A program made the position numbers and the translations under genes. The notes below the pieces were generated by a model. That model was given only the letters and a program-made list of their open reading frames with translations. It made no database searches and was not told the DNA's origin. Below are positions 12,308-54,137 of a stretch of DNA of 64,000 nt, one piece after another (the first letter of the stretch is position 1; each line of letters opens with the position of its first letter). Origin of the DNA: a virus; IMG/VR virus record IMGVR_UViG_3300036886_000243, positions 27,509 through 91,508 of that record. One strand, 5' to 3'.

Positions 12308-12660
12308 AATTAAGTAGAGTTCTTAAAGAAGCATTAGAACAAGAAATTCGAAAAGGCCATATTGCATTAGCGCCCTTTCCATATTCAGACAGAGATGAAT
12401 CTAAAGTTCGACCCTGTTTAGTGTTAGCCAAGAAAGGTGATGATATTCTGTGTGCTTATATGAGCAGTAAGCTGGAGCGCGAAGGTGTTCTAATAAAGTC
12501 GGTAGATTTGAGCTGGAGTGAATTGAAAGATCCAACTGCATTGATTCGACCAGACAAACTTGCTACTATAGACGTAAAACGAATAGAAAAAATAGTAGGC
12601 CACCTAATAGAGCCTAAACGAAAAGAAGTGGTCAACCGCATAAACAATCTAATACAATGA
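12304..12660 (+). CDS. mazF: MazF/PemK-family endoribonuclease with extra N-terminal MKLSRVLKEALEQE peptide; no adjacent antitoxin
   Basis: GHIALAPFPYSD...KVRPCLVL...MSS...IRPDKLATID signature. Confidence 0.85.
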   Translation: MKLSRVLKEALEQEIRKGHIALAPFPYSDRDESKVRPCLVLAKKGDDILCAYMSSKLEREGVLIKSVDLSWSELKDPTALIRPDKLATIDVKRIEKIVGHLIEPKRKEVVNRINNLIQ

Positions 12661-12998
12661 AAGAGCCTGAAAAAATACTTGGTGGACTTTATTTGAGTAC
12701 GTGGTTTAACACGGAAGGGCTCTTCGTCTGTGTGAAAATAAATCAATACAAAGGAATAGCTAGTGTTAGCTTTCAATACACGAAAACAAAAAAACCTGAT
12801 TCTGTGGGCGGCTTCAAGCCAATCTGGCCACAAAGTTTAACAGACCATTTTAAAGCTATGAAATGGGCTCCGTCTTACCTTCCATCCGTTGGTATAGAGT
12901 GGGTCGATGTAGAGTTGGCCACTCCATCAAGCGCTAAAGATATCATAAACAAAATTGATAAGAGAAATTTTATCATAGACCTTTTCAAATATGAATGA
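12657..12998 (+). CDS. C-terminal helix family protein (KRNFIIDLF)
   Basis: ATGA-coupled to mazF. Confidence 0.7.
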   Translation: MKEPEKILGGLYLSTWFNTEGLFVCVKINQYKGIASVSFQYTKTKKPDSVGGFKPIWPQSLTDHFKAMKWAPSYLPSVGIEWVDVELATPSSAKDIINKIDKRNFIIDLFKYE

Positions 12999-13008
12999 AA
13001 TAATAGGC

Positions 13009-13042
13009 AAGCCCACTAATCTTTAGATTGAGGATAGTTCAC
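13009..13042 (+). mobile_element. orphan IS200/IS605-family right-end remnant
   Basis: AAGCCCACTAATCTTTAGATTGAGGATAGTTCAC matches the AAGCCC..CTTTAG..GGGTAGTTCAC end pattern seen after tnpB genes; no tnpA/tnpB nearby. Confidence 0.6.
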
Positions 13043-13050
13043 TACTAGCC

Positions 13051-13068
13051 TCGACAGTTCTATATACT
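13051..13068 (+). promoter_or_regulatory. TCGACA-N6-TATACT promoter motif
   Basis: 7 nt before ATG 13076, no SD. Confidence 0.6.
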
Positions 13069-13075
13069 ATATTAA

Positions 13076-13573
13076 ATGGGCGATTCAAAACGCTTTGATT
13101 TATTTGCAGAGTATATTGCTCGCAACTTTCCTGTTTCAAAATATAAGCGTGTAGCTGATATTGCTGGTGGCCAAGGTTACCTACAGCAAGCTCTCCGTAA
13201 GTTAAGCTATGATGTCACTACGTTTGATAAGCGCCATAAACATGTTAAGAGCAACAAGATTCAATACAAGTTCAAGTATTTCGACTCTAGTATAAAGGAC
13301 GACTATGATCTCTTAGTGGGAATGCATCCAGACGAAGCGACTGACATTATCATAGCTGAAGCTATTAAAAGGAACATTCCCTTTGTAGTTGTCCCTTGCT
13401 GCATTAAACCAACTGTCACGACATTCAAAGGTCAACAGGACTACAAAGCATGGGTCAATCATCTCAAGTTTTTTGCTATGCGACAAGGATATCACGTAGA
13501 GGAATACCAACTGAAAATGGCCGGAAAAAATATTCTTCTAAAAGGTTCGCCTAAATCTGCTTCACGGCGCTGA
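13076..13573 (+). CDS. class I SAM-dependent methyltransferase-like protein
   Basis: VADIAGGQGYL motif I; VGMHPDEATD and PFVVVPCC motifs. Confidence 0.7.
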   Translation: MGDSKRFDLFAEYIARNFPVSKYKRVADIAGGQGYLQQALRKLSYDVTTFDKRHKHVKSNKIQYKFKYFDSSIKDDYDLLVGMHPDEATDIIIAEAIKRNIPFVVVPCCIKPTVTTFKGQQDYKAWVNHLKFFAMRQGYHVEEYQLKMAGKNILLKGSPKSASRR

Positions 13574-13579
13574 GAAGTT

Positions 13580-13597
13580 TCGAACGCGGCATATATT
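13580..13597 (+). promoter_or_regulatory. TCGAAC-N6-TATATT variant promoter motif
   Basis: Same geometry as the TCGACA motif; upstream of AGGAGG RBS. Confidence 0.45.
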
Positions 13598-13636
13598 AAG
13601 GCAAAGAGATTCACCATCAACCAATAGGAGGTAAAG

Positions 13637-14068
13637 ATGGACGACACCAAGAAGAAGACGACTCCGGCTCCGGTTGCAGAGCAGACCGATTCAACTCCGG
13701 CTGCGGCCTCCGCCGCCCCTGTAGTCGCCGCCCCCAAGAAGGCATCCCCCGCAAAGAAGCCAGTCGGCACCAAGCCCACCCAGGGCACGAAGGGCACCAA
13801 GCCCACGAAGTCGACCGGTGACAAGCCGAAGGCCCCGAAGGCTCCCAAGGCCCCCGTGGCCCCGAAGACTCCCCGGGTGAAGAAGTCCGCCGAGGACAAG
13901 AGACTCGCTCGCCGGGCCAGGGCCAAGAACCGACGGGTCAAGGCGAAGGCTGCCAAGCTCCACATTTCCGAAGCCGAAGTCCTGAAGCGCATGGCCGAAC
14001 GGAAGACCAATGCCGCGGCACGGAAGGCCGAGAAGGCCACCAAGATGGCCGCCAAGAAATCGGCCTAG
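13637..14068 (+). CDS. Lys/Ala/Pro-rich histone H1-like basic protein
   Basis: PKAPKAPKAP, AKKP repeats; strong AGGAGG RBS; high-GC codon usage. Confidence 0.7.
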   Translation: MDDTKKKTTPAPVAEQTDSTPAAASAAPVVAAPKKASPAKKPVGTKPTQGTKGTKPTKSTGDKPKAPKAPKAPVAPKTPRVKKSAEDKRLARRARAKNRRVKAKAAKLHISEAEVLKRMAERKTNAAARKAEKATKMAAKKSA

Positions 14069-14084
14069 CTCCATCATCCTGATC

Positions 14085-14118
14085 ACTGAGGCTGCCTGGG
14101 TATTTCGGCAGCCTCAGT
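14085..14118 (+). other. perfect 12-bp GC-rich hairpin, no U-tract
   Basis: ACTGAGGCTGCC / GGCAGCCTCAGT. Confidence 0.7.
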
Positions 14119-14136
14119 CGCGTGTAAAGGGAAATA

Positions 14137-14316: not shown

Positions 14317-14324
14317 TATATTAT
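14307..14324 (+). promoter_or_regulatory. TCGACA-N6-TATTAT promoter motif
   Basis: Upstream of AGGAGG RBS and ATG 14347. Confidence 0.65.
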
Positions 14325-14346
14325 AAAGCATCAGGAGGAACCTGCA

Positions 14347-14922: not shown

Positions 14923-14924
14923 AA

Positions 14925-15940: not shown

Positions 15941-15978
15941 TAATAAATGAGACATAAAAAAATGTCAAGGAGAATTTC

Positions 15979-21528: not shown

Positions 21529-21897
21529 ATGGACAAGGTAGTTTTGCATAACAAAGCAGTTAGCTTCTTTCTCCGCTCGTATTGGAGATATCAGAAGATT
21601 TCTGACTTTGTTGTAGAAAAAGACGGTGAGAAGTTCACCGTAATAACAAATTTCCCAAAAAACAAAAACACTGGCAATATCTCTTTTAATCCAAATAGGA
21701 TTGAGCAGATGTTGAGAGATGATTGCATAGGAGCAATCATTGTCCATTGCTTTGGATCAGACAACTTTGAGGTCTTTGGCATTACAACTATCAATGATCT
21801 TGCTAAAGGTATTGCTAAAACGTGGCAGCCAAACAAGTACGGTTACAATGATTACAAGCTGGCTGCTATTCGCCACCTTAACATTCAGGCGGCTTAA
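21529..21897 (+). CDS. hypothetical protein
   Basis: AGGAG RBS. Confidence 0.65.
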   Translation: MDKVVLHNKAVSFFLRSYWRYQKISDFVVEKDGEKFTVITNFPKNKNTGNISFNPNRIEQMLRDDCIGAIIVHCFGSDNFEVFGITTINDLAKGIAKTWQPNKYGYNDYKLAAIRHLNIQAA

Positions 21898-21907
21898 GGA
21901 GAATTAC

Positions 21908-22213
21908 ATGGCAAAGAAGAAAACAACGAAGAGACCCAAGAGCTATTACCAGAAGGTAGTAGACAAGATCCGGAAAGATCTTTTGTCCAACGTGAAAGGT
22001 ATGCAGTCAGAATCAACTTCCGACGAAGAGCACGCCAGCTACGACGAAACCATCAGCAAAATCAAAGCAGCAAAGACAATCGGCGCTCTTTCAAACGTTG
22101 CCCAAGAAATGGCTTGGGACTACGAGTCCTTCATTGGCCTCTTGCTCGACTCTCTCGGTGGGAAAGAGCCGGTTGATTCGGCAATGTTTGACGCTTTCGG
22201 TTGGGACACATGA
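21908..22213 (+). CDS. hypothetical protein
   Basis: AAGGAG RBS. Confidence 0.7.
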   Translation: MAKKKTTKRPKSYYQKVVDKIRKDLLSNVKGMQSESTSDEEHASYDETISKIKAAKTIGALSNVAQEMAWDYESFIGLLLDSLGGKEPVDSAMFDAFGWDT

Positions 22214-22506
22214 ACAGCCAAGAGCGCATCAATGAGCTCCAGCAGGAGATCGAAAAAGAGCGTTACAAAATCGATCACTGCTGCCACATCTTCGGCGAGC
22301 CTTTCAGCAACCCTGAAAAATTCATGGAAGGCTACGGTTCGAAACTCATGCATCAAGGCTCTGATTGCTGGACAGAGTTCGAGGGCTACAAAGAGGCCTT
22401 CAAGCCACGTTGGACAAGAACCTGCAACAAGTGTGGTCATCAGGAACATACCTATAAACGGAAGCCGGTCATATCTGATTATGTGCCAGACTTCGGAAAG
22501 GAATAA
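22210..22506 (+). CDS. hypothetical Cys/His protein
   Basis: CCH...WTRTCNKCG. Confidence 0.7.
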   Translation: MNSQERINELQQEIEKERYKIDHCCHIFGEPFSNPEKFMEGYGSKLMHQGSDCWTEFEGYKEAFKPRWTRTCNKCGHQEHTYKRKPVISDYVPDFGKE

Positions 22507-22645: not shown

Positions 22646-22939
22646 ATGAAGGTCAACTTGGACATTCGAGACGACAAAGAGCTTCGTGACATGGTCAAGG
22701 ACATGATCCGCGGTCAGGTCAAGAGCGTTATGCGGACCGACATCGACGAGATCATGAAGGAAGTGGTCGGCGACAAGACGGCCAAGCTATCCGACGTCAT
22801 GGCTAAAGAGATCACCAAGGTCGTTCGGGACTTCTTCCAGAGCGGCTATACTCGCGGCCCTGGTTATGCCATGATCGAGAAAGAGATCAAGGAACAGGTC
22901 GCTCTCACTCTCAAGAAGGTCATCCAGGAAGCCCGCTAA
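22646..22939 (+). CDS. hypothetical helical protein
   Basis: AAGGAG RBS; GC3-rich codons. Confidence 0.75.
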   Translation: MKVNLDIRDDKELRDMVKDMIRGQVKSVMRTDIDEIMKEVVGDKTAKLSDVMAKEITKVVRDFFQSGYTRGPGYAMIEKEIKEQVALTLKKVIQEAR

Positions 22940-23205
22940 TGCAGGATCGGTCAAACGACATAGAAGTTAGCGGCGTCAAGATCAAAGACGAATGCCTGCT
23001 CATGGTGCAAAAAGCCATGAGCGGGTTTCCGTCCATCCGTTTCCTCTACAATCCTATCAAGTATTTTCGAACTCCTTACTATGAGATTGCCTATGGCGGC
23101 AAGAGCAATGATGTACGAGCATTTGAAGTTGCCATCCAGGACTTCTACTGGAACCCACCTGAGCCACCCAAAAGAACCTTCTTCCAAAAGCTTTTCAACA
23201 TTTAA
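22939..23205 (+). CDS. hypothetical protein
   Basis: TAATG coupling. Confidence 0.65.
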   Translation: MQDRSNDIEVSGVKIKDECLLMVQKAMSGFPSIRFLYNPIKYFRTPYYEIAYGGKSNDVRAFEVAIQDFYWNPPEPPKRTFFQKLFNI

Positions 23206-23217: not shown

Positions 23218-23547
23218 ATGTTGCTCTATGAAGATTTTGTATATAGAAAACCTGCATCTAGATATTTTGGAAAATGGCGTCTAAGTAGTTCTGGGCGATG
23301 GGGTCATTATGACTTATTCATAAAGGCCATCAAAGAGAATACTAATTCAGTCCACTTTTTAGTTTGGAGTCCAGGAGAACCAGAGTCGACTAATCCAAGT
23401 TTTAAAAAACCTTATCTGAGCGATGAATTTCACCAATGGACTGCTAATTATGGCGGCGAACTCATACCGCAACCAAGCATTAAAGTTTTAAGAAACCTTA
23501 TCAAATCCTTATTCGTCGAACATACTTATAGATTCATAAAGGACTAA
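23218..23547 (+). CDS. C-terminal helix family protein (RNLIKSLF)
   Basis: Motif near C-terminus. Confidence 0.7.
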   Translation: MLLYEDFVYRKPASRYFGKWRLSSSGRWGHYDLFIKAIKENTNSVHFLVWSPGEPESTNPSFKKPYLSDEFHQWTANYGGELIPQPSIKVLRNLIKSLFVEHTYRFIKD

Positions 23548-24048: not shown

Positions 24049-24573
24049 ATGATCCCAGATATGCATCGTGAAACACTAATGGCCATCCGGCAATTAGTGC
24101 AACAGCACATTATAGATGGAAATTCAATTTTAGTGGTACGACCTATAGATACTTATCAATACAACCAATGGCTTAACAGCGTTCTTTTTGATCTTAACTC
24201 TTGGTTGAAAGATGTCCCTTGGGGTCTCAAAGTTTTCAATTACTACACAGCCCACGTACCACCCAATCCCTCTACGAATCCAAACCTAATGACGCCGACG
24301 CCTCCGCCAAGATGGTCGTTTATTCACTTTGATCGTTTTGAAGAAGGTGATGCAGAATGGCCAGATGTTTATGATAATGACGGACAGTATTTTAACTTCC
24401 CATGCCGATTCTTTCCTCGTCCAGTTCCGCCTCCACCAACTCCACCTTTAGAGCCGCTGACTACAGAAGAGAGTGCAGTCCAATTATTAAAGACACAGAT
24501 TGTAGCCTTACAAGCAATTTACGCTCGACTCAACGCAGAGACAATACCTACTGGGTCTATTGTATTCCCATAA
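24049..24573 (+). CDS. Pro-rich hypothetical protein
   Basis: RBS; ORF. Confidence 0.7.
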   Translation: MIPDMHRETLMAIRQLVQQHIIDGNSILVVRPIDTYQYNQWLNSVLFDLNSWLKDVPWGLKVFNYYTAHVPPNPSTNPNLMTPTPPPRWSFIHFDRFEEGDAEWPDVYDNDGQYFNFPCRFFPRPVPPPPTPPLEPLTTEESAVQLLKTQIVALQAIYARLNAETIPTGSIVFP

Positions 24574-24833
24574 TGAAAGCTGGCGATATTACTTACAGAA
24601 AAGATAAAGAAGTACCTGGTGAATTTTGGCACATAGCCACTGACAGCTTTAACATTCTACGTTTTACATCTTTAGAACCAAACAGATTCTTATATTCTAT
24701 GCCAAGCGGATCTTATCCATCAGCTCGTTTTATTGCTGGTCGCTTTGTCAAAAATCCAGATCTACACAGAAAGAGAATAATAAAAGCTATCTTCAAAGCA
24801 AAAGTGTTTCAAGAGCATTCAGCTATGAGGTAA
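24573..24833 (+). CDS. C-terminal helix family protein (KRIIKAIF), MKAGD SH3/KOW-like start
   Basis: TAATG-coupled; true start inside track ORF 24402. Confidence 0.7.
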   Translation: MKAGDITYRKDKEVPGEFWHIATDSFNILRFTSLEPNRFLYSMPSGSYPSARFIAGRFVKNPDLHRKRIIKAIFKAKVFQEHSAMR

Positions 24834-30956: not shown

Positions 30957-31910
30957 ATGTCTCTCGTTTGTATTTTGGATAAGACAACTAAAAATGAAAA
31001 GAGTGTTGAGTTAATAAAATCTAACGATATAGTCATTTTCATTTGTGATATTTGTTTTCGCAAATCCCAACGACAATATAGAAAAACTAAATATGGCTTG
31101 AAGCCTACTTGTCAAGAGTGTCTGACTAAACAAAAGTGGTTAAACAACTACAGTGTAGATAATCCATTCAAATATGGACCCATAATAGAGCGAGTTAAAA
31201 AAGCCGATAGATCTGAAAAAGTCCAACAAAAGAAGAGACTAACCTGTTTAAAGAAATATGGTGTAGACAATGTAAATAAGCTCAGCTCGACAAGAAGCAA
31301 AATAGATCGAACTAATTTAAAGAAATACGGCTCGAAGTTTCCTACACAGACGGATGCAATAAAAAATAGAACAAAACAAACTTGCTTAAAAAAGTATGGT
31401 GTTGAAAGCCATAACCAAGTTGAGTCAGTAAAAGTCACCAAACAAAAGGTTTGTTTAGAAAAATATGGCGTAGATAACGTAAGTCAAATTAGTGCAGTAA
31501 AAAATAAGAAATACCTAACTCATAAAAAGAATAATAGTTTCAATATATCTAAACCAGAAAGAGTCGCTGAATCAGCTTTGAGAGCTATATGTTCAGATTT
31601 GATTTGCCAACACAAGGAAGATAGATATCCATTTTCTTGTGATTTTTATTCTCCGACCAAAGATTTATTTATAGAATGTAATTTTCATTGGGCACACGGT
31701 AAAAAACCATTTGATTCCAACGATATGATCGACCTAGCAAAGTTAGGATATTGGCAAGAAAAATCTAAGAATTCTAAGTTCTATAAGCACGCTATAAAAA
31801 CTTGGACAGTAAGTGATCTAGAAAAAAGAAATATCGCTGCTAAGAATAATCTCAACTATTTGGTATTTTGGTCTTTGAAAGATTTATTAAAGTACTGCGA
31901 GGTAAAATGA
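30957..31910 (+). CDS. putative homing endonuclease: CLKKYGV repeats plus PD-(D/E)xK/Vsr-like nuclease
   Basis: Four or five (C/N)LKKYG repeats; SKPE...CDFY...FIECN..WAHG. Confidence 0.75.
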   Translation: MSLVCILDKTTKNEKSVELIKSNDIVIFICDICFRKSQRQYRKTKYGLKPTCQECLTKQKWLNNYSVDNPFKYGPIIERVKKADRSEKVQQKKRLTCLKKYGVDNVNKLSSTRSKIDRTNLKKYGSKFPTQTDAIKNRTKQTCLKKYGVESHNQVESVKVTKQKVCLEKYGVDNVSQISAVKNKKYLTHKKNNSFNISKPERVAESALRAICSDLICQHKEDRYPFSCDFYSPTKDLFIECNFHWAHGKKPFDSNDMIDLAKLGYWQEKSKNSKFYKHAIKTWTVSDLEKRNIAAKNNLNYLVFWSLKDLLKYCEVK

Positions 31911-32785: not shown

Positions 32786-33019
32786 ATGATCTTATATCGT
32801 TCTTCTAAAGGAGCTGTGCCTGGGGCATGGTTTATACCTATTTCTCGGCAAGGTAATTGGTACTCTTGGCTATCAATCACTAAGCGCGACGAACTCTTCC
32901 TAGAAGAAATTAAAATTAACGGTTCTCATATATCAGGCGGCAACTCAGCAACTAAAGGTGACTTGAGACGTCTCGTCAGATATCTTTTTTATTTGGATTT
33001 GAAGTATGAAGCAACTTAA
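32786..33019 (+). CDS. C-terminal helix family protein (RRLVRYLF)
   Basis: Motif near C-terminus. Confidence 0.65.
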   Translation: MILYRSSKGAVPGAWFIPISRQGNWYSWLSITKRDELFLEEIKINGSHISGGNSATKGDLRRLVRYLFYLDLKYEAT

Positions 33020-33293
33020 AGTTGGTGATAAAGTTTGGTGGGCGTGGTTTAAATATGGAGATAATGTCTTTGGCCGCGTTGAGATATTCGACTTCGCTAA
33101 AGATGTATCACCGACTCACTACATATTGAAACCAATCAAAATCTATTTTGACGAAGCTTTTTCTGCTGAGAATGGCGTTCCTTTAAAGGGCGTCGCTATA
33201 GAACGTAAGCACTTATTCACTGATGAAGAGTTCAATCACCTCAAAGCAAAACCTCATCTCATTATATCTATTTTTCATTACAGATGGGATTAA
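33006..33293 (+). CDS. C-terminal helix family protein (KPHLIISIF), LKVGDKV SH3/KOW-like start
   Basis: Motif near C-terminus. Confidence 0.7.
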   Translation: MKQLKVGDKVWWAWFKYGDNVFGRVEIFDFAKDVSPTHYILKPIKIYFDEAFSAENGVPLKGVAIERKHLFTDEEFNHLKAKPHLIISIFHYRWD

Positions 33294-33891: not shown

Positions 33892-34225
33892 ATACGTATT
33901 CATATTCCCCCAGCAGACTATACTGCCAGACCTATTTAAGAAAGGTGTTGAAGATATGCAAGACGTAGAGTATGGAGTAGAGTGGCCTGAAAGTTGGAAT
34001 GTAAAAGTAGAAAATATGGGCCGTGGCTATACTGGTCCCACTAACTACAAATTGCGATTAGTCGATAAAAACGAAGATCCTGGACCAGACGAAGAAGACC
34101 CATATGGCACAGCCACAAAATATACGTTTTTGATATGGTGCAATGAATCTAAATTGAAAGACGTAATTGATTTTCTGAAATACTTAGGTATGGGCCATAG
34201 CAACAATTTTTACAAGAGCATATAA
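33857..34225 (+). CDS. hypothetical protein
   Basis: ORF track. Confidence 0.65.
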   Translation: MDVRTRKKLTVKYVFIFPQQTILPDLFKKGVEDMQDVEYGVEWPESWNVKVENMGRGYTGPTNYKLRLVDKNEDPGPDEEDPYGTATKYTFLIWCNESKLKDVIDFLKYLGMGHSNNFYKSI

Positions 34226-34611
34226 TGAAGAAGAAAGCATTAAGAGTCAACATTTTAAAAGATCTTGGACTAGGTAGGATGAACAGAGTTTACAAAAAGA
34301 AAATATTCATTACTATCTTCAAGGATCTTAAAAGTGGTAAAGGCATGCTAGAACAATTTAATAAAACTGGTTTACTTGTTGCCTATAGCCTTAGAAGCAA
34401 AGTGCTTTTAGAAAAGATAAATACTTGGCTCAGATCTAAAGACAAATATATAGACATCGTAGATAAAACTATTTATGTAGAATTCTTGGATGATGAAATA
34501 GAGATAAGTGGTAATTGGGATAATGAAAATTATGGACATAGTAATTTTTCAGTCTTTGCCGATTTATCTGGTAATTTAATTAACTTTGATATTGATGAAA
34601 GCACACATTAA
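34225..34611 (+). CDS. hypothetical protein
   Basis: TAATG-coupled. Confidence 0.65.
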   Translation: MKKKALRVNILKDLGLGRMNRVYKKKIFITIFKDLKSGKGMLEQFNKTGLLVAYSLRSKVLLEKINTWLRSKDKYIDIVDKTIYVEFLDDEIEISGNWDNENYGHSNFSVFADLSGNLINFDIDESTH

Positions 34612-36462: not shown

Positions 36463-37401
36463 ATGAAAAAAGTAGCACTTGTTTATAGCGCCGTGCCTGA
36501 GAGCGCTCCTATAGACGAACAAGACACATTAATTCAAGCAAACTTTATAAGACCAGCTATCTCTAAGTTGGGCTTTGAAGTAACAGACATTCCCATCACA
36601 GATTTAAGAATTGCTGAAAAGCAATTCAAAGAAGTTAAGCCAGATGTAGTTTTCAATCTAGCTGAGAGTATAAACGGTAAAGGGAAGCTCGTTCATTTGA
36701 TTCCTAATATGTTAGATACTTTAAGAATCCCTTACACTGGATCTTCTGCTAAAGCTTTATTCATAACTTCTAACAAAGTCCTCGCTAAGAAAATACTGAT
36801 GGCTAACAACCTCCCAACAGCTCCGCTCCTTAATGGACGTTTTGATCCGCCGTATATAGTTAAAGCTATTTGGGAACATGCATCTATAGGCATGACAGAT
36901 TCATCAGTAGTTTATACCGAAGAAGCTCTTAAGACAGAATTTCAAAAGAGACGCGCAGAAGAGCTCTTTGTAGAAAAATTTATTGATGGTAGAGAGATGA
37001 ACATAACTATGTTGAGTCAAGGTAAAGACATTCTGATATTACCAACACGTGAAATGGTGTTTAAAAAGTTCCCCGATGATAAGCCGCGTATAGTAGGTTA
37101 TGACGCTAAGTGGTTGACTGAATCTTTTGAGTATGTTAACACCTCGCTAAAATTTAGATTCCGAAATGCTGAAGCCGAGTTGATTGAAAACCTCATAGAC
37201 ATCAGCAAAAAGTGTTGGGACATTTTCGAGCTGAAAGGTTATGTACGAGTTGATTTTAGAATAGATAAAGACAACAAACCTCACGTTTTAGAAATTAATG
37301 CTAATCCTTGTTTAGCACCTGATGCTGGTTATATGATAGCTGCTAAAAGAATAGGACTCACAATACAAGATATCGTTCAATGTATAATAGAAGCTGCATA
37401 A
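36463..37401 (+). CDS. ATP-grasp D-Ala-D-Ala ligase-like protein
   Basis: VVFNLAE, IPYTGS, VKAIWEHASIG, EKFIDGRE, RVDFR, EINANP. Confidence 0.9.
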   Translation: MKKVALVYSAVPESAPIDEQDTLIQANFIRPAISKLGFEVTDIPITDLRIAEKQFKEVKPDVVFNLAESINGKGKLVHLIPNMLDTLRIPYTGSSAKALFITSNKVLAKKILMANNLPTAPLLNGRFDPPYIVKAIWEHASIGMTDSSVVYTEEALKTEFQKRRAEELFVEKFIDGREMNITMLSQGKDILILPTREMVFKKFPDDKPRIVGYDAKWLTESFEYVNTSLKFRFRNAEAELIENLIDISKKCWDIFELKGYVRVDFRIDKDNKPHVLEINANPCLAPDAGYMIAAKRIGLTIQDIVQCIIEAA

Positions 37402-37410
37402 TTTTCTTAT

Positions 37411-38046
37411 ATGGACACGCATGCAACTTATTCTAAGATTAAGCGCGAAATAGATACACGGTTAGCTGAGTTTGCTCAATCAGCTAATAACGGTCAATCA
37501 ATCTTAACCGAAGCAGTCTTCTGTCTATGTACTCCGCAATCAGATGCACACAAATGCTGGAATGCCGCCATAGAAGTAATGCGACTTTTTCGGTCGAACT
37601 ATTTACCCTTAGATGTAGCGGAAAAAACTCTCAGGGAATATGGTGTCAGATTTCACAAAACAAAAGCCATGAGAATACATAAGCTCTTCTTCGATGACGA
37701 TAGTCTGGCAAAACTTTCACCGACTATTCTTGTGAGCATGTGTACGATCGTGGGCATCGCTAAGACTAGAGACTACTTGGCAGAGAGCATAAATGGCTGG
37801 GGTCTAAAAGAAGCTTCTCACTTCTTACGTAATATTGGGTTCAGCGATGACGTTTGTATTCTTGACAGACATATACTACGTAATCTACTTCGTCTTAAAA
37901 TAATCAACGAAATACCTAAGCTTAGTAAAAAGAAATATCACGAGATAGAACAGAAGATGATTAAATACGCTCACAAGATTAAAGTACCCGTAGCTGCTCT
38001 GGACTTAGTTTTTTGGTATAATGCAAAAGAGGAGATCTTTAAATGA
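37411..38046 (+). CDS. ogg: N-glycosylase/AP lyase (8-oxoguanine DNA glycosylase, Ogg2-type)
   Basis: FCLCTPQS, GVRFH..KA, GLKEASHFLRNIG, ILDRHIL, LDLVFW. Confidence 0.9.
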   Translation: MDTHATYSKIKREIDTRLAEFAQSANNGQSILTEAVFCLCTPQSDAHKCWNAAIEVMRLFRSNYLPLDVAEKTLREYGVRFHKTKAMRIHKLFFDDDSLAKLSPTILVSMCTIVGIAKTRDYLAESINGWGLKEASHFLRNIGFSDDVCILDRHILRNLLRLKIINEIPKLSKKKYHEIEQKMIKYAHKIKVPVAALDLVFWYNAKEEIFK

Positions 38047-38061
38047 AGCTTAGAATAGGCC

Positions 38062-38571
38062 ATGACGAAAAACATGGTTATTGGGTTGAGCAAAAGTGGT
38101 GCTAACAATCCCATGTTTGGTAAGCCTTCGCCAAACGGCTCAGGTAATGGTTGGTCAGGCTGGTATAAAGGTTGGTTTTTTAGAAGTCTGAGAGAGTTAT
38201 CATTTATGATAAACTTTATAGAAAAAAACGGTATGAAATGGGTGAGCGCTGAGTCCAAAAAATATGCCATTCAATATCAAGATTATAAACACAATAAGAG
38301 AAATTATTTTGCTGATTTTATGTTAAACGATGTTGAGTTAATTGAAGTAAAACCTTATAAGTTACTAAAATCAAAGATTATACAAATAAAATCAGAAGCT
38401 GCTAAAATTTGGTGTGCTGAGCGTAATTTCTCATACAGAATAATGACTGATAAGGATTTCGAAGTTCTAACTGATAAAGAAGTTAATTTTTTAATAGAAA
38501 GCGGTAAAATAAAGTTTACAGATAGGTATATGGAGAAATATAATGCAAGACTTGCAAAAATTCAAAAATAA
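38062..38571 (+). CDS. NUMOD3 plus TnsA-like PD-(D/E)xK endonuclease (free-standing HEG-like)
   Basis: GANNPMFGK; FRSLRE...YFADF...IEVKP. Confidence 0.75.
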   Translation: MTKNMVIGLSKSGANNPMFGKPSPNGSGNGWSGWYKGWFFRSLRELSFMINFIEKNGMKWVSAESKKYAIQYQDYKHNKRNYFADFMLNDVELIEVKPYKLLKSKIIQIKSEAAKIWCAERNFSYRIMTDKDFEVLTDKEVNFLIESGKIKFTDRYMEKYNARLAKIQK

Positions 38572-39190
38572 ATTAATAGTTTTAGAGGGCCAAGACAATA
38601 CTTCAAAAACGACAGTTGCTCAGCTTCTAGTTAATAGGCTTAACGACAACAGTATACCAAGCATTTTCACATTCCAGCCCGGTGATTCTAATTATGGAAT
38701 ACTAGCACCGATCATGAGATCACTTTGTAAAGATAAGAGGTGGTGTTTACATCCTCTATCAAACATGTACGCTTTTTACCTTGATCGTGTAGAGCAAATG
38801 GATAAAGTAATAATACCAGCCCTTAATGAAGGTAAGACTGTAGTATCAGACCGGTGGTGGTACTCTACTTGGGCATATCAATACTCTGGTAAGCAGATCA
38901 CAGAAACTTATAAAATGCCACAATCAGTAGCCGATTGGTTTAGCGTTAGCTCAGAGCTAGACCATACACCCGATATTGTGTATTATTTTCCTGAGAAGAT
39001 CAAGAAACCAATGGGCGAACGGAAAAGCGACAGTGGTAAGAACGATCTATTTGAAACAGCTGGCTCATCCTTTGAAGATCGTGTTCATGAAGCCTATGAG
39101 CAATTAGCCCAAAAACTAAACTTCAAACGTGTGTATCCGGCGGCTACTCCAGAAGCAACTTTAGAGAACCTAATCAATATAGGTTTTTAA
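38543..39190 (+). CDS. tmk: thymidylate (dTMP) kinase
   Basis: IVLEGQDNTSKTT P-loop; VVSDRWWYS. Confidence 0.85.
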   Translation: MQDLQKFKNKLIVLEGQDNTSKTTVAQLLVNRLNDNSIPSIFTFQPGDSNYGILAPIMRSLCKDKRWCLHPLSNMYAFYLDRVEQMDKVIIPALNEGKTVVSDRWWYSTWAYQYSGKQITETYKMPQSVADWFSVSSELDHTPDIVYYFPEKIKKPMGERKSDSGKNDLFETAGSSFEDRVHEAYEQLAQKLNFKRVYPAATPEATLENLINIGF

Positions 39191-39207: not shown

Positions 39208-39600
39208 ATGAAGCTCTTTGAAGCACTGGAACATAAGAAAATAGCATATAAAGGCTCACGGCCAAATTATAAAATCCATGATGGACACCCTAATGTTTTA
39301 ATCATAGACCCTGATTATTCGTATGATGGCCACGGTAAATCTATTCTTGGAATGAATCTAAACTATTTAGACCAACTAACCGAGAAACAAAAGAAACAGC
39401 TAATAGCCAAAGTCAACAAAATAGATGCTACAGTTATTAATATGGGTGCTATAAAAACATGGTTACGCACGTTATTTAACCGTGGTGACTATGACGGCTT
39501 AACTGTAGACAAGAAAATAGAACGCTATAGGAAAATGGTCAAGAATTTCCCAGAGTTAAAGAAAGTTATTAGGCGTTACAAATACTCGGCAATTGTATGA
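39208..39600 (+). CDS. T4 gp2-like DNA end protector-like protein with MKLFEALE N-terminus
   Basis: D..P.VL...ILGMNLNYL...IRRYK resembles gp2 family motifs. Confidence 0.55.
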   Translation: MKLFEALEHKKIAYKGSRPNYKIHDGHPNVLIIDPDYSYDGHGKSILGMNLNYLDQLTEKQKKQLIAKVNKIDATVINMGAIKTWLRTLFNRGDYDGLTVDKKIERYRKMVKNFPELKKVIRRYKYSAIV

Positions 39601-39834
39601 GAGTCAATAAAAACGACATTTTGTACTTTGACAGCAACAGTTATGAAAAATGGATGCTTGGTGATTTAAGTGTATGGCATCATTATCGATAAAATATCAT
39701 ATAACGTAATTCCAAGATTAATTGATAACCCAACTCCTGGAGATATAGCTAGTGTAGTGAACAAGTACAAGCTAATCAAATTAATTAACGACAGGGATGA
39801 CCTAAAGAGAAATTTTGTGAAGAGTATCTTATGA
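39597..39834 (+). pseudogene. frameshifted member of C-terminal helix family (KRNFVKSIL)
   Basis: ATG 39597 frame reads MRVNKNDILYF...GDL; +1 frame from 39670 reads VYGIIIDK...KRNFVKSIL*; ATGA overlaps at both ends. Confidence 0.55.
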
Positions 39835-40052
39835 TCACGTTTGCACAATCAGAATCGCATGATTATAAGAGATGGACAATTAATGAATCGATAGTCATTT
39901 TATATCTTACTTTTGAGGGCGAAAAAAGATTAGAGATACTTCAACGGAGTAGCTTCGCCGACTTGAGGGACTTACCCATTTATTACCAAAAAGATTTTAG
40001 AGATCTTATTTCGAGTATATTCAAAGCCGAGGCAATAGTTAAAAAGATATGA
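39831..40052 (+). CDS. C-terminal helix family protein (RDLISSIF)
   Basis: Motif; ATGA-coupled. Confidence 0.65.
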   Translation: MITFAQSESHDYKRWTINESIVILYLTFEGEKRLEILQRSSFADLRDLPIYYQKDFRDLISSIFKAEAIVKKI

Positions 40053-40297
40053 TGTGGCGACAGTACAAAGATTTATCTCTCTATTATCTTATAGTTAAAC
40101 CTCAATGGGCTTTCATAGTGGATATGCCACAAGTCCATATTAGTTTTGATGGTTGGAGTGAAGGTGGCTGGGAAGATCTCCTCACTAAAACTGAACCGAT
40201 CAAGAAAATAGATCCACCTCAAAGTTGGACTCTTAGCGACTTAGGTAAATTTGTGATAATGTCAATCTTCGGGGAAAAGGAATTCATACATGAATGA
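40049..40297 (+). CDS. C-terminal helix family protein (KFVIMSIF)
   Basis: Motif; ATGA-coupled. Confidence 0.65.
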   Translation: MMWRQYKDLSLYYLIVKPQWAFIVDMPQVHISFDGWSEGGWEDLLTKTEPIKKIDPPQSWTLSDLGKFVIMSIFGEKEFIHE

Positions 40298-41306
40298 AGG
40301 ATTAGATTTTATAAAGGGTAGCGGCATCAAAGTAAAAGACGATGCAAAAGCGAAAGAAGAATTGAATAGTTGGTACGGCGTCGATGAATCTATTCTCGAT
40401 GTAGAGAAGAAAGAACTAAACCCTGAAATATGGAAGGATAAGAAACTCAAAAAAGATATCGTTGAACAGCTGATGACCATAATTAGAAAGATCTTGAAGG
40501 ATAGTAACATAGAAGAAGATAGGTTAACAGCAGCTTTTCTTGAAGGTTCAAACTTAACATACTACTACACCAAATATTCTGACATAGACGCCCACATGTA
40601 TATTGACGACATTAAAGACGAAGAGAAGGAAATCATAGACTCAAAGATTTACGACTTCAATAAAGAGACTGTTTTCGTAAAGGGTACAAAAAACAATATC
40701 GAACTTTATCTAATGGATGCGACTCAGAAGAAGAGAACTAATGGCCCACGCTATGACTTGATAGAAGACGAATGGGTAAAACCTCCAAACCGAATTAAGA
40801 TGCCTGCCGAAATGTATAAAGCTGCAGTTGAGATATCTATGACGTTTGCTAGAGATCTAGATTTAGCATTCGGCGAAATAAAACGAGATATCATAGAGTA
40901 TATGGTTCTAACTAAAGAACTCGAAGACGTTCTCAACATCGACATAAAAGAACTCGAAGATACTAGAAAAATGAAAGTAGAAGGACTCAAGGCTGATCTT
41001 GAGGCTTTAATCATAAAAGAAGAAAACATAAAAGCTATGAGACGTAAGGCCTTTATGGAAGACTACATTCCTAAGGATGAAACATTATACCACATTCCAA
41101 TAGGCGAAGGTGATAGATCTTACACACTACTCAACATGATATTTAAGATCCTACAAAGATTCGGTTACGTAGATTCTTTAAAAAAACTAAAGTACGACGT
41201 CTATAACAAGGCTATCGAGAACAAAGACTTTGACGGTAATATAGACTTTTACATTAAACGTATTATAGAAGTATTGAAGATTTTTAACAAATTAGATGAA
41301 ACTTGA
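40290..41306 (+). CDS. Pol-beta-superfamily nucleotidyltransferase
   Basis: EGSNLTYYYTKYSDIDAH, third acidic strand IELY, YDL..DEWVK.P. Confidence 0.8.
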   Translation: MNEGLDFIKGSGIKVKDDAKAKEELNSWYGVDESILDVEKKELNPEIWKDKKLKKDIVEQLMTIIRKILKDSNIEEDRLTAAFLEGSNLTYYYTKYSDIDAHMYIDDIKDEEKEIIDSKIYDFNKETVFVKGTKNNIELYLMDATQKKRTNGPRYDLIEDEWVKPPNRIKMPAEMYKAAVEISMTFARDLDLAFGEIKRDIIEYMVLTKELEDVLNIDIKELEDTRKMKVEGLKADLEALIIKEENIKAMRRKAFMEDYIPKDETLYHIPIGEGDRSYTLLNMIFKILQRFGYVDSLKKLKYDVYNKAIENKDFDGNIDFYIKRIIEVLKIFNKLDET

Positions 41307-41565
41307 ACCTCCATATAAACAATACGAGGGAATGTGGCTAAGCGGCACAAGTAATTCCCCGTTCTATTTTGTGGCTAAATTTCTTCATAGCGAAATACCA
41401 AAGGGCTATACTATGCCCGTAATAGAATTTTTAGTTGTATCAAAAGGAGATGGAGCCAGTCATTTGAGCTGGTTTCCTGAACCATCAGAGATATACAAAT
41501 TTGAAAGTGAAGAAAAACATCGTGCCGTTATAAGAAACGTATTCGAAAAGAAGAACGAAAACTAA
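41296..41565 (+). CDS. C-terminal helix family protein (RAVIRNVF)
   Basis: Motif. Confidence 0.7.
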   Translation: MKLEPPYKQYEGMWLSGTSNSPFYFVAKFLHSEIPKGYTMPVIEFLVVSKGDGASHLSWFPEPSEIYKFESEEKHRAVIRNVFEKKNEN

Positions 41566-41804
41566 TGTACTTCCAACTCAAAAACTTCATTTTTAATGTG
41601 ACTGCTAGCAGTCAGCGATACCCGCGCCGATGTATCGGCATAAACGTTGTTAAACGTAAAGATGAAGCGTGGTTGTACCTTAAGGCGATATGGGGCCAAG
41701 GAAATTTTATAGAACATGCCATACCTAAAACAACTTTAGACGAATGGGAATCTTGGGTACCAAGAGTAGTCGTAAAGAGTTTATTTAAATACAAGACAAG
41801 CTAA
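41565..41804 (+). CDS. C-terminal helix family protein (RVVVKSLF)
   Basis: Motif; TAATG-coupled. Confidence 0.7.
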   Translation: MYFQLKNFIFNVTASSQRYPRRCIGINVVKRKDEAWLYLKAIWGQGNFIEHAIPKTTLDEWESWVPRVVVKSLFKYKTS

Positions 41805-47215: not shown

Positions 47216-48034
47216 ATGAAACTAGACGAGGCAATGGAATTAGACGAAGTAAAAGGCAAAGGTGGATTCGATTATCGCTTTTGGTACTGGGCTAAAAAAG
47301 GTACATCTTCGTATGGCTTAGGTTATGCTAGACAATCAGTAGATGTAGATTTGACAAGAGCCAGTCATGATGCAGAAGAAGCTATAAAAAATATTGCTCA
47401 AGCATCAGATGCTTTAGATAAACTTAGCCCAGAAGAACAAAAGAAACAACATCCCATAGTAGAGAAGAAGCACCTTGAGAATGTGAAAAGGTTAAAAACA
47501 ATGGTAGACCAATTCGGTTCACCAATTGTAATCCATTGGCTAAGTAGTATTCCCACTGAAAAGGCGGGTGATGAACTAAGAGAACCCACTGGCGAACGAC
47601 CTACAATAGCGACAGTACCGTTAAGACGCAAAGATGATGTCACAGATTATTCAGGCCAAGATCTGAATTTTGCCTTACTTTATAGACAATCCAATACTAA
47701 AAAAGTTATTGAAATGAACGTTAAGTGGAACGCTATCAAAATAAATGATGCCGCTGGAGATACACAGAATACCCTAATTGCTAAATTTGCCAAAGAAGTA
47801 ATTACAAAACACGGTAAAACACGCGAGGCTACATATGGTCGTGCCACGGCTATACCCGACATAATGAAAACATTACATTTTAAGGATGAAGCCTCCGGTA
47901 CAGAAATTAAACCCTTTAGTACAGCAGATTACAAATTTATTGAAGGTGTAGGTTCAGAAATTGGTAAATTACGCGATGTAATCAAAGGTAAGTTCCCACA
48001 AATATTAAAGAGAGTCCGAGCGATATTTACATAA
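47216..48034 (+). CDS. putative internal head protein (MKLDEAMELDE)
   Basis: Capsid-targeting-like N-terminus. Confidence 0.7.
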   Translation: MKLDEAMELDEVKGKGGFDYRFWYWAKKGTSSYGLGYARQSVDVDLTRASHDAEEAIKNIAQASDALDKLSPEEQKKQHPIVEKKHLENVKRLKTMVDQFGSPIVIHWLSSIPTEKAGDELREPTGERPTIATVPLRRKDDVTDYSGQDLNFALLYRQSNTKKVIEMNVKWNAIKINDAAGDTQNTLIAKFAKEVITKHGKTREATYGRATAIPDIMKTLHFKDEASGTEIKPFSTADYKFIEGVGSEIGKLRDVIKGKFPQILKRVRAIFT

Positions 48035-49760: not shown

Positions 49761-50054
49761 ATGATAAATCTGAAGAAATTAGTAAGAGGGCAGATTTTAA
49801 AATCTGAGCAAGATGCTTTAAAAGGATATTATATAATCAAGGATTTACCTATAGTATTAGATCTTATTTGGGCTAGAAAAACTAATACTTTGTTTTTTGC
49901 AGATATGTCTATAAAGGAAACTGAAAAGGAATTTAAACAGGAAACTTATATAGCTGAAGACCAAGTATTAGCCCGAAAAGAAATAATTAGATTGGTATAT
50001 ACCGCTATGTCAGTTAAGCCGAGCGATATCGCAGAAGTATTTAAGAGTATATAA
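49761..50054 (+). CDS. C-terminal helix family protein (KEIIRLVY), LVRGQI start
   Basis: Motif somewhat further from C-terminus. Confidence 0.6.
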   Translation: MINLKKLVRGQILKSEQDALKGYYIIKDLPIVLDLIWARKTNTLFFADMSIKETEKEFKQETYIAEDQVLARKEIIRLVYTAMSVKPSDIAEVFKSI

Positions 50055-50877: not shown

Positions 50878-51119
50878 TGAGCGTTAGAGGTAAAAACTTT
50901 TACAGTCAATTTGAAGATGAAATGGAAGCCATTGAGGGTATGTTTGTTAATACTGATGAAGATATTAGTAATCCTGCCACTGCTGATTTAGTAGCTAACT
51001 TTGAAAGACAAAAAGCTGTTTTAATGGCCAAGAAGACTAAGCTCACACAAGAGTTAGATGCTACTGATAAAGAAATACAAAAGATAGACGCACAGATTGG
51101 TTTGAAAAAGAGCACATGA
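50877..51119 (+). CDS. small coiled-coil protein
   Basis: TAATG-coupled. Confidence 0.65.
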   Translation: MSVRGKNFYSQFEDEMEAIEGMFVNTDEDISNPATADLVANFERQKAVLMAKKTKLTQELDATDKEIQKIDAQIGLKKST

Positions 51120-51541
51120 GCATGAGTAAATGGGATGAAGACGAATTTGACGATGAAGAGGAGCATTATAGAAAGAAGCGTGAACGTGTAGATAAAGAAC
51201 ATATAGAAAGAGAAAAAGAAAGAGAGCGAACTCTCAAAAGTCTCCATAAAGGCCAAGTGCTACAACACTCTGGTAGTTGGAACGTCACAAGCCCAGGCCA
51301 TCCCGCGCTAGACAGTTTTGTTGTATTTTTAATCATACGTTCTTTAGACGAAGATAATATATATGGCGCAATCATAGCCAAAGCATCAACTGGTAAAAAG
51401 TTCTTATACCCAGATGTGAAAGTTGGACGTGATGAAGATATCGAACTTAATTTTGCTAATGTGGGTGGCTCAATCTTTTGGCCCAAAGATATGAAAGACA
51501 CAAAAGATTTTCATAAAGTTGTAAGAACGGTATTTGAATAA
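51116..51541 (+). CDS. C-terminal helix family protein (HKVVRTVFE) with charged N-terminal extension
   Basis: LHKGQV start of SH3-like part. Confidence 0.7.
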   Translation: MSMSKWDEDEFDDEEEHYRKKRERVDKEHIEREKERERTLKSLHKGQVLQHSGSWNVTSPGHPALDSFVVFLIIRSLDEDNIYGAIIAKASTGKKFLYPDVKVGRDEDIELNFANVGGSIFWPKDMKDTKDFHKVVRTVFE

Positions 51542-51813
51542 TGAACCTTGAAGTTGGAAAACTTTACTATAATGACTTTAAAGAGTGTATAGTAAAAGTT
51601 ACTAGTAAAATTGAGAAGCCCGATGAAACTGGCGTAGATAAGCCATCCTCATATACGGCTACAGTTTTAATTGGCAATTTGACATTTGGCGAGCGCAATT
51701 TATTTTTTGCTGCTGATTCTAAGTTTGATAATCATTTAGAAGAAATCATAACACTGCTTGAGACTCGAAAAAAGAAAGTAATAAGATCTATTTGGAATAC
51801 TATTCATGGCTGA
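51541..51813 (+). CDS. C-terminal helix family protein (KKVIRSIW), LEVGKLY start
   Basis: Motif. Confidence 0.7.
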   Translation: MNLEVGKLYYNDFKECIVKVTSKIEKPDETGVDKPSSYTATVLIGNLTFGERNLFFAADSKFDNHLEEIITLLETRKKKVIRSIWNTIHG

Positions 51814-53698
51814 AGATAATAAGAAGCACGTCCTTCGACGACTACAAGAAAAAATAATCGAATTCAATTTGCCCATAACTGTCGATAAAATACCTTTATC
51901 TGGCGAGTATGTCAAAGTAAAATATAACGATGATACTGTAGATACCGTAGACTGGAAAGCAGAGTTTTATCTTTGTAAAAATTTCTTTGAATACTTTGCT
52001 GATCAATATGGTTATATTTTAGACCCTAAAAACAAAAGAGTCTTTGCTTTTAAATCACACAAGTTCCAAAGGGAATTGATAATTCCCACGATATTAAACA
52101 ATCTACACGTAATATTTAGAAAGTGCCGACAACAAGGCTTGAGTGTCATTTGTGGTATCTACGCTATATGGAAAGTAAATTTCAATATGGCCCAGGACGT
52201 AATGATAATTTCACGAACTGGTAAAGATGCACGAGACTTCAAAGCAAAGGCTATGGTAACCTACGATAGATTACCAGAGTTTTTGAAAACGAAAGCTACT
52301 CGCGATGGACAGAACATGTCCACACTAAAACTACTCAACCAATCTAAAATGGAAGTTAGAACAGCTGCCCAGGATTCAGGACGTGGTGTTACTGCTTCTT
52401 TATTGATACTTGATGAGTGTGCTTTCATGCAATACGCTGATGACATCTGGGGTTCAGCTTATCCTTCATTGTCTAACACTGGCGGTCAATGCTTTATAAT
52501 TTCCACTGCAAACGGAGTAGGAAACTTTTATCATCAAAAGTGGTTACAAGCTGAAAATGGCGAAAGTGATTTTGCAGCAGTATATGTACCATGGTGGAAG
52601 TACCCTGGTCGAGATAACGATTGGTCTGAATATATTAACGATCATCAACAAGACTACATAGAAAATGAATTAGGTACTATTTCTGTAGAACAATTAAAGA
52701 AAGACTTAGCCGAAGAAAAAGAAAATGTACCAGATGCTTATTGGAAAAGATTAGCAGATCTTTATGTCCAGAAAAAAGAAGAAGAAGCGTTAAACTATAA
52801 CGGCACAGGTAAAAAACCTTGGCTCAAGATTCAAAGAGATGAACTAGGACCCAGAAAATTTAATCAGGAAATTTTATCTAGATTCTTAGGATCAGGTAAT
52901 ACAGTAATAAGCATAGAAGCTCTTGAAAGAATAAACGAGCAGATAAGGGAACCAGTATTCACAGACAGCTTAGACGGACGTGAAACCATTAAAGGTTTGA
53001 ATGTTTTTCAGTCACCAGTAAATGATATAACTTATACAATGACCGTCGACGTTGCATCCGGATCTGGTAGCGACTATAGCACTTTTCAAATTTTTAGAGA
53101 TGATAGCTTAGAACAGGTAGTCGAATACAAACAGCAAATAGATAATAAATCATTTTCTGCAATAATAAAGAAAGTTGGTAAGCGTTACAATTTAGCCTAT
53201 GTAATAGTAGAAACTAACCAAGGTATGTCTGTCTTTAATGAATTATATCTAGATGTAAATGATCCTTATCAGAATATGCTATATGAGTTTAAGAATAGAT
53301 CTTATCGAGGTTTACATACTGGTCCAGCCAATAAGAAACTAATGCTTGATGAATTCATGATGAACATAGAAAACAACCATATTAAGATTTATGGTAAACG
53401 CACTTTAGAAGAAATGCAGGTTTACATTTGGCACAATAATAAGCCACAAGCTAGTACTGGTTATAACGATGACTTAGTATTGCCCATAATGTTCTTAGCC
53501 TATTTATTGAAGTACGGGGAACAAAGAATGACTACGCTTGGTTTTGCAACCGCTACACAAACAGTAGGCGTTCCTCAAGAGACCATGGCGGACGAACGCG
53601 TAGAAGAGATGAAATATTTCAAAGAAGAAGAGGCAAAGAGGGCAGTTAAAGATCTCTATGGCCTTGATTGGGAGACGTATAATTGGGTAAGCAAATAA
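51806..53698 (+). CDS. terL: terminase large subunit (T4 gp17-like)
   Basis: RKCRQQGLS Walker A, LLILDECAF Walker B, IISTANG, TVDVASGSGSDYS nuclease, GYNDDLV. Confidence 0.95.
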   Translation: MAEDNKKHVLRRLQEKIIEFNLPITVDKIPLSGEYVKVKYNDDTVDTVDWKAEFYLCKNFFEYFADQYGYILDPKNKRVFAFKSHKFQRELIIPTILNNLHVIFRKCRQQGLSVICGIYAIWKVNFNMAQDVMIISRTGKDARDFKAKAMVTYDRLPEFLKTKATRDGQNMSTLKLLNQSKMEVRTAAQDSGRGVTASLLILDECAFMQYADDIWGSAYPSLSNTGGQCFIISTANGVGNFYHQKWLQAENGESDFAAVYVPWWKYPGRDNDWSEYINDHQQDYIENELGTISVEQLKKDLAEEKENVPDAYWKRLADLYVQKKEEEALNYNGTGKKPWLKIQRDELGPRKFNQEILSRFLGSGNTVISIEALERINEQIREPVFTDSLDGRETIKGLNVFQSPVNDITYTMTVDVASGSGSDYSTFQIFRDDSLEQVVEYKQQIDNKSFSAIIKKVGKRYNLAYVIVETNQGMSVFNELYLDVNDPYQNMLYEFKNRSYRGLHTGPANKKLMLDEFMMNIENNHIKIYGKRTLEEMQVYIWHNNKPQASTGYNDDLVLPIMFLAYLLKYGEQRMTTLGFATATQTVGVPQETMADERVEEMKYFKEEEAKRAVKDLYGLDWETYNWVSK

Positions 53699-53895
53699 CA
53701 ATACCATCGGGCATTCCCAATCCCAACTACAACAACAAATTGGTTAAAGCTAATTTTCTATTACTACATGATCTGCTTAAAAACAAAGCATGGTTGGTCT
53801 TTCAGCAAGTAGTAAAAGAGGGTTACAAAAACGGATGGATCCGTGAAATTACTCCCGATCTATTTAAAGCTATTTTTAGTGGCGCTTATAAATGA
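53683..53895 (+). CDS. C-terminal helix family protein (PDLFKAIF)
   Basis: Motif. Confidence 0.6.
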   Translation: MGKQITIPSGIPNPNYNNKLVKANFLLLHDLLKNKAWLVFQQVVKEGYKNGWIREITPDLFKAIFSGAYK

Positions 53896-54137
53896 AAATC
53901 AATGTCAAAAACATTATAAGCGATTGGGAATACGAGATTCATAAGTGGAAGGGATTTGATATATCGCACAGTCCAAGACCGAAATGGGAATATAGTCTTA
54001 GTCGAGATGGTTATGAAGTTTTTGAATTTAGTCGGGGTGGGTATTTAACATTAGAAAGTATAGTCGAAAATCTTGAAAAAGCCTTAGATGAAGAGAAGAA
54101 CAAAATAGCAATGATCCGAGCTTGCTTCGAGAACTAA
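53892..54137 (+). CDS. C-terminal helix family protein (IAMIRACFE)
   Basis: Motif; ATGA-coupled. Confidence 0.65.
   Translation: MKINVKNIISDWEYEIHKWKGFDISHSPRPKWEYSLSRDGYEVFEFSRGGYLTLESIVENLEKALDEEKNKIAMIRACFEN

Follow-up and report, generated by a model that had tools for sequence, protein, structure and literature searches.

Several described systems come close to the arrangement studied here, in which small proteins encoded on a 64,000-nucleotide stretch of viral DNA (the window; bases 27509-91508 of the 91.5-kb IMG/VR contig IMGVR_UViG_3300036886_000243, estimated to be ~45% complete) end in the same short amphipathic helix. Among otherwise unrelated proteins of T4-type phages, the nearest precedent for a common C-terminal peptide is that of T4 gp43, gp55 and gp33, whose C-termini are clamp-binding epitopes of hydrophobic and acidic character, carried on variable flexible linkers (PMC2988020). 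The likeness lies in a short hydrophobic C-terminal epitope on otherwise unrelated proteins, in T4 binding one partner; the difference is that those epitopes are acidic, whereas the element in the window is hydrophobic and basic and sits on ~18 small proteins, and on this charge (members being basic, net +1.4) a clamp-binding epitope was rejected. Membrane-targeting sequences of MinD and FtsA have likewise been documented in C-terminal location, with their function (PMC4429545). These too are short basic amphipathic helices, with an h-h-[KR]-x-h-F layout (h, hydrophobic; x, any residue), but they are free and unstructured until lipid-bound, whereas modelling suggests that the helix described here is part of a domain.

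The T4 internal proteins carry an N-terminal capsid targeting sequence that is cleaved off at L/I-x-E. This sequence resembles the present element in being a short helical address on small proteins of a phage with a gp21-type protease, and an earlier sequence-only reading of the window, which had first pointed to the shared ending, suggested that it may be an uncleaved C-terminal packaging signal. Nothing was found in support of that suggestion: the motif is C-terminal and not N-terminal, and an [LIVC]-F-E resembling the gp21 cleavage site follows in 5 of 18 members only. Another parallel is offered by the small accessory proteins that large phages and large DNA viruses encode in multigene families, as paralogues that expand in tandem and diverge fast around one constant module. 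Shared with these are the many copies (~13% of the open reading frames, ORFs), the tandem pairs and triplets, the gain and loss between close relatives and the short conserved module beside a variable body; the set in the window differs in having no Pfam or PHROG match, in showing direct paralogy for only one pair and in having a ~12-residue terminal helix as its constant module. Among the closest known systems for the members themselves are the chromo-barrel, PWWP, Tudor and KOW SH3-like small beta barrels.

The source of the DNA is an uncultured, distant T4-type phage, as marked by a gp20-type portal with an intein domain, an S77 prohead protease and a large terminase, the last having Flavobacterium phage immuto as its best cultured relative at only 31% identity. 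Genes are tightly packed and nearly all lie on the plus strand, and the counts of carriers refer to 133 plus-strand ORFs. Two short viral contigs, here called L002 and L003, were the sole relatives returned by a terminase query, with the L002 terminase being 87% identical to that of the window.

The C-terminal motif

The ORFs listed in the sequence-only reading, together with their C-terminal strings, were all recovered from the sequence, and 14 or 15 of the 16 end in [KR]-x-h-[IV]-[KR]-[SA]-h-F, the motif lying within the last 25 amino acids (aa) in almost all members. By position, the residues were [KR] at -3 and -2, L/V/F at 0, I at +1 (12/17), K/R at +2, S/A at +3, I/L/V at +4 and F at +5 (15/17), then often E/K; K or R occupied -2 in 11 of 17 members and +2 in 11 of 17. 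Of the 133 ORFs, 17 have the simple pattern h-h-x-x-h-F among their last 25 aa, compared with 3.05 +/- 1.66 expected after shuffling of whole proteins and 2.8 +/- 1.6 (maximum 9 in 1000) upon shuffling each C-terminal 25-mer alone, as a control matched in composition. Using instead a 9-column matrix with leave-one-out scoring and a cut-off of 8 bits, 13 tails were found at or above the cut-off, where 0.39 were expected from the rate at 23,292 internal positions and 0.83 (maximum 4) were obtained after shuffling within tails. The control phage immuto, with 140 ORFs, gave 1 such tail. The carriers total ~18 of the 133 ORFs (about 13%, roughly one in seven).

Member tails had a higher hydrophobic moment than control tails (0.61 versus 0.48, p=0.0015) and a net charge over the last 20 aa of +1.4 versus -0.4, with K being enriched 1.6-fold in C-terminal tails generally. 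Since the motif codons differ synonymously between members, and no DNA words common to member 3' ends were longer than in control genes, the signal resides in the protein and not in the DNA, and an explanation at the DNA level was dismissed on these two grounds. The shared C-terminal amphipathic helix is, as had been claimed, real and maintained at the protein level.

A proposed diverging family of small proteins

We favour the view that the carriers of this uncultured T4-like phage are one multigene family, restricted to its lineage and diverging rapidly, and assign to this view a probability of about 0.55. New copies would arise by tandem duplication, of which a fresh example is seen in a relative, whereupon their aromatic-rich bodies of 55-100 aa would diverge until sequence identity is no longer recognisable. 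Each copy would retain at its end the basic amphipathic helix of 12-16 residues, [KR]-x-h-[IV]-[KR]-[SA]-h-F, whose I/L/V/F face may pack on the beta domain like the C-terminal helix of a chromo-barrel or PWWP domain, as one confident model suggests, and translation would occur by coupling to neighbouring genes, with which starts and stops overlap. The terminal helix would be the sole element that can still be aligned because it is short, free of indels and anchored to the C-terminus. The variable surfaces of the members probably bind different host or phage targets.

As the sequence-only reading had stated, the bodies lack pairwise sequence similarity: helix-less BLAST, jackhmmer, Smith-Waterman z-scores and leave-one-out hidden Markov models (HMMs) gave nothing beyond controls. 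The carriers nevertheless do not look like a random sample of domains, being narrow in size, rich in aromatic residues, clustered, duplicated in L002 and slightly more alike than controls in profile comparisons. All are 70-141 aa long, with 53 of the 133 ORFs (40%) exceeding 150 aa; aromatic residues make up 13.8% of member bodies versus 10.0% of control bodies (p=1.5e-4); and 8 adjacent member pairs were found where 2.4 were expected among small genes (P=0.0003). When helix-less ortholog profiles, built small from six members and eight control proteins, were compared by hhalign, the median P was 0.19 for member-member and 0.47 for member-control pairs (p=0.003), and with helix-less profiles set against single sequences 13.9% versus 4.9% of pairs were at P < 0.05 (p=0.03). 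The groups of the members at 23218 and 41296 (members are named here by their first nucleotide in the window) aligned collinearly across 58-59 body columns, while the 49761 and 51116 groups have a common N-terminal start, L-K-x-L-x-[RK]-G-Q-[IV]-L, and 39831 was the best non-self match of the 51541-group profile.

The duplication was caught in L002, where a tandem pair comprises the 51541 orthologue (871-1158) and a second copy (1148-1423) that retains the motif and shares 36% identity with 51541 (E 1e-12); this is the sole pair with clear direct paralogy. Members were also gained and lost at the same slots between related genomes, with 53683 and 53892 being absent at the corresponding position in L002 and L003, a different carrier (4458-4721, ending in RNIIMWMW) occupying the slot after the terminase in L002, and an extra member being present in L003 at 2178-2501. 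Orthologues at 56-89% identity retained the hydrophobic positions of the motif. With six ortholog sets pooled, the motif 9-mer was 75% conserved versus 67% for the rest of the protein, a difference short of significance (p=0.10); for a docking epitope read by one partner, a stronger contrast would be expected.

The only confident structural model was that of 51541, which AlphaFold predicted from five sequences with a predicted local distance difference test score (pLDDT) of 82.8 and a predicted template modelling score (pTM) of 0.70. It comprises strands at residues 8-11, 16-27, 33-45, 52-57 and 66-68 followed by a 16-residue helix, 74-89, that contains the motif (pLDDT 72-81). The model is SH3/Tudor/chromo-barrel-like by VIA, with weak agreement from Foldseek, and its chromo-barrel and PWWP matches cover residues 1-88, helix included, which fits a predicted helix that belongs to its domain; the same type of arrangement was found in many uncharacterised small phage proteins. 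The model of 41296, made from three sequences and of low confidence (pLDDT 48), has the same element order, with five strands and then a C-terminal helix at 72-88. Chou-Fasman prediction was discarded as too crude, as it called the AlphaFold helix a strand.

In public data the set has few relatives. Searches of all members plus three from relatives against Pfam and PHROG gave nothing below E 0.04. A HMMER search of 1.8 billion representative proteins with 51541 retrieved only three homologues, all of them small, and 41296, 23218 and 33006 had two to four homologues each among 5.8 billion clusters. There was no match for 33006 or 23218 among cultured phages by tblastn, no usable lead in the ESM Atlas for 33006 or 12657, and only chance-level matches of the 23218- and 33006-group profiles to PDB sequences. 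At the genome level, a metagenome search with the terminase recovered only the L002 sequence again, no relatives were found with 41296, 40290 and 31868 as queries, and 7 kb of the window gave no megablast match to cultured phages. Proteins identical to members are also encoded on a contig of roughly 310 kb.

A number of observations weigh against descent from one family. Body-body similarity was found neither pairwise nor with leave-one-out HMMs, hhalign probabilities being at most 3%, and the weak profile excess could stem from a shared structural class or composition instead of descent, the pairs being non-independent. A CxxC..CxxC zinc ribbon stands at the N-terminus of one carrier encoded upstream of the window (G000 21530-21904), so that at least one carrier differs in architecture, and 53683 looks mostly helical by eye; taken together, not every carrier need therefore share one fold. 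The 41296 model matches open-sheet-plus-helix folds (WGR, RWD and TriTu) and not SH3 barrels, and burial of the predicted helix in 51541 is judged solely from which known folds its model matched. Furthermore, members with unrecognisable bodies still have basic residues in common at -2 and +2 and a small one at +3, and as simple packing does not explain these residues they hint at an outside ligand.

Alternative roles of the helix

A further possibility is that the helix is a shared handle, i.e. a lineage-specific, basic amphipathic C-terminal address by which rapidly diversifying small beta-rich proteins reach either the inner membrane or one phage or host protein, which we hold as a tentative and somewhat doubtful reading. 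The version proposed by the sequence-only reading, with a portable docking or addressing helix taking unrelated small domains to one common phage or host protein partner as a modular effector library, appears unlikely to us. It survives in that the helix is real and the bodies are pairwise dissimilar, but not in its view of the bodies, which do not look like random cargo, nor in any better conservation of the helix. The absence of detectable body similarity, the zinc-ribbon carrier, the polar positions of the helix conserved across members, the positive tail charge and the Pro-, Gly- or Ser-rich stretch that often precedes the helix (as in 32786, 22939 and 40049) would all suit a tag; however, only small proteins carry the motif, they occur in tandem clusters with a duplicate caught in L002, no trace of tag transfer between genes is visible at the DNA level, the helix is no more conserved than the body among orthologues, the confident model puts it inside matches to domains owning such a helix, and no conserved neighbouring partner gene was seen. 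The outcome that the sequence-only reading had itself set against its proposal, a divergent paralogue family in place of a transferable tag, agrees better with the evidence than the tag does, although that evidence includes only one confident structure.

If the common partner were the lipid bilayer, the helix would lie in the plane of the inner membrane in the manner of MinD and FtsA. The E. coli MinD C-terminal motif is K-G-F-L-K-R-L-F, which scores 6.2 bits with our matrix and shares its layout with the consensus [KR]-x-h-h-[KR]-x-h-F. The helix of the members is indeed C-terminal and amphipathic, with basic residues flanking the apolar face, located at one edge of it in helical-wheel geometry, and the elevated hydrophobic moment and positive tail charge noted above point the same way. 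Yet any helix packing on a sheet has the same periodicity, the AlphaFold helix is a 16-residue element within chromo-barrel-like matches and no membrane-related neighbour genes were seen, making a membrane anchor distinctly unlikely. An origin of the motif in AT-rich codon use, downstream ribosome-binding sequences or chance is very improbable. The E/K after the motif F does overlap the purine-rich stretch (codons GAG AAA AAG) just before the next, overlapping start codon, and these residues may reflect translation initiation and not the protein; C-terminal tails are also K-enriched in general. The core motif, on the other hand, precedes the next start by 10-50 nt, uses varied synonymous codons, is retained in the orthologues, is not enriched in the control phage of similar type and exceeds shuffles within the 25-mers (0.8 versus 13-18 observed), whereby a composition or ribosome-binding-site artefact was excluded for the core and kept as a possible explanation of the post-F E/K alone. 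With the addressing, membrane and artefact explanations so weighed, the diverging family is the reading that we prefer.

Carriers, neighbouring genes and significance

Most of the 16 carriers listed by the sequence-only reading were confirmed; 66..377, listed as weak, fell out since its KLCLEACF context scores -8.8 bits, and 40049, 51116 and 53892 are weak only (4-6 bits). All features given here for the window are on the plus strand, and scores are leave-one-out unless stated otherwise. Starts and stops overlap those of neighbours by 1-16 nt in most members, which bears out the proposed translational coupling, and no member was found between 13.0 and 22.9 kb, much as had been noted for the GC-rich early block.

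The first member, 12657..12998 (113 aa, ending in KRNFIIDLFKYE; 11.7 bits), has a start that overlaps the stop of a MazF/PemK-like toxin gene at 12304-12660 (PF02452, E 9e-10), which closes a structural block. The idea of a MazF antitoxin, prompted by this gene overlap, was rejected, the tail being basic and no other support being found. Beyond this gap in the carriers, a weak extra candidate absent from the earlier list, 22939..23205 (88 aa, NPPEPPKRTFFQKLFNI; 6.6 bits), adjoins the best motif match of all, 23218..23547 (109 aa, LRNLIKSLFVEHTYRFIKD; 17.4 bits). The latter has three orthologues at 72-74% identity with a nearly unaltered tail; among them a loop at residues ~21-35 is hypervariable in sequence as well as in length, in contrast to the nearly invariant last 30 residues. 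Member 24573..24833 (86 aa, RKRIIKAIFKAKVFQEHSAMR; 14.5 bits) begins with MKAGDITY, its start overlapping the stop of 24049-24573. Next come 32786..33019 (77 aa, LRRLVRYLFYLDLKYEAT; 11.7 bits), with a Gly/Ser-rich stretch before the helix, and 33006..33293 (95 aa, beginning with MKQLKVGDKVWW and ending in KPHLIISIFHYRWD; 12.3 bits), whose orthologues at 81-89% identity retain the motif.

Between 39.6 and 41.8 kb the carriers form a cluster. It opens with a probable frameshifted or split member at 39597..39834, consisting of a 31-aa ORF (39597-39692) followed in another frame by a 54-aa GTG-initiated ORF (39670-39834) that ends in KRNFVKSIL; as this string, found by three-frame translation, scores 12.7 bits with a matrix built without it, a frameshifted member is plausible. 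Member 39831..40052 (73 aa, FRDLISSIFKAEAIVKKI; 15.5 bits) stands in tandem with the weak member 40049..40297 (82 aa, GKFVIMSIFGEKEFIHE; 4.2 bits), and likewise 41296..41565 (89 aa, HRAVIRNVFEKKNEN; 13.4 bits), whose orthologues P0002 and P0003 retain V-I-x-x-V-F, with 41565..41804 (79 aa, PRVVVKSLFKYKTS; 8.6 bits). Just upstream of this cluster, a run of metabolic and repair genes at 36463-39190 encodes a D-Ala-D-Ala-ligase-like ATP-grasp protein, an Ogg-type 8-oxoguanine glycosylase, a TnsA-like endonuclease and a thymidylate kinase.

Further downstream, 49761..50054 (97 aa) begins with LVRGQILK and has RKEIIRLVY 17 aa before its stop, scoring 12.9 bits with the full matrix including itself; its L003 orthologue has RKEVVRLIY (13.4 bits). 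The weak member 51116..51541 (141 aa, ending in FHKVVRTVFE; 5.7 bits) has a charged 40-aa N-terminal extension and an L003 orthologue with YTRVIKTVF (7.4 bits). Member 51541..51813 (90 aa, KKKVIRSIWNTIHG; 11.9 bits) closely precedes the large terminase gene, and the last two are 53683..53895 (70 aa, TTG start, TPDLFKAIFSGAYK; 9.4 bits) and the weak 53892..54137 (81 aa, KIAMIRACFEN; 5.7 bits). A possible larger carrier, left out of the member count, is 47216..48034, encoding 272 aa, the last 25 of which include LRDVIKGKF (9.6 bits); no Pfam family was found for it, and its L003 orthologue has LREVVKNKF (10.9 bits). The best internal match of the matrix, KKKIFITIF at residues 24-32 of the 128-aa product of 34225-34611 (13.2 bits), is close to the N-terminus, where it may serve as a hydrophobic anchor instead of being the family helix. 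Three additional carriers, identified by matrix score, are arranged in tandem ahead of the window, at G000 21530-21904, 21901-22137 and 22134-22415. The 124-aa protein heading the triplet is the one with the zinc-ribbon-like CxxC...CxxC segment, and two tails of the triplet, FEKKK and FEKKK, overlap the next start codons.

Several neighbouring genes may be recorded here. The large terminase ORF encodes 630 aa in the window (51806-53698) and 996-999 aa in L002 (1427-4417) and L003 (6249-9248), where 310-360 additional residues follow residue ~107 and point to an intein or other inserted element in the two relatives that is not present in the window genome. The T4-type portal (56727-59102, 791 aa) contains an intein splicing domain, PF14890, at residues 82-170; directly upstream of its gene lies a GIY-YIG/NUMOD3 homing-endonuclease-like gene (56156-56725), and the gp21-type prohead protease gene is at 60855-61493. 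In the 317-aa product of 30957-31910, a DUF7487 domain (E 9e-17) was found together with a faint match to the T7 gp5.9 RecBCD-inhibitor family (E 4e-4, under the curated cut-off).

The helix motif is real and previously undescribed, and the set, which makes up about 13% of the contig genes, is described in no database. Should these genes form a fast-evolving family, they would illustrate in compact form the way in which tandem duplication provides large phages with libraries of small binding proteins, and would be a pool of candidate factors for host takeover or counter-defence. Should the helix instead be a shared handle, a simple address code could be defined. Either way, the short motif offers a practical route to the set in related genomes, in which searches with whole proteins fail.

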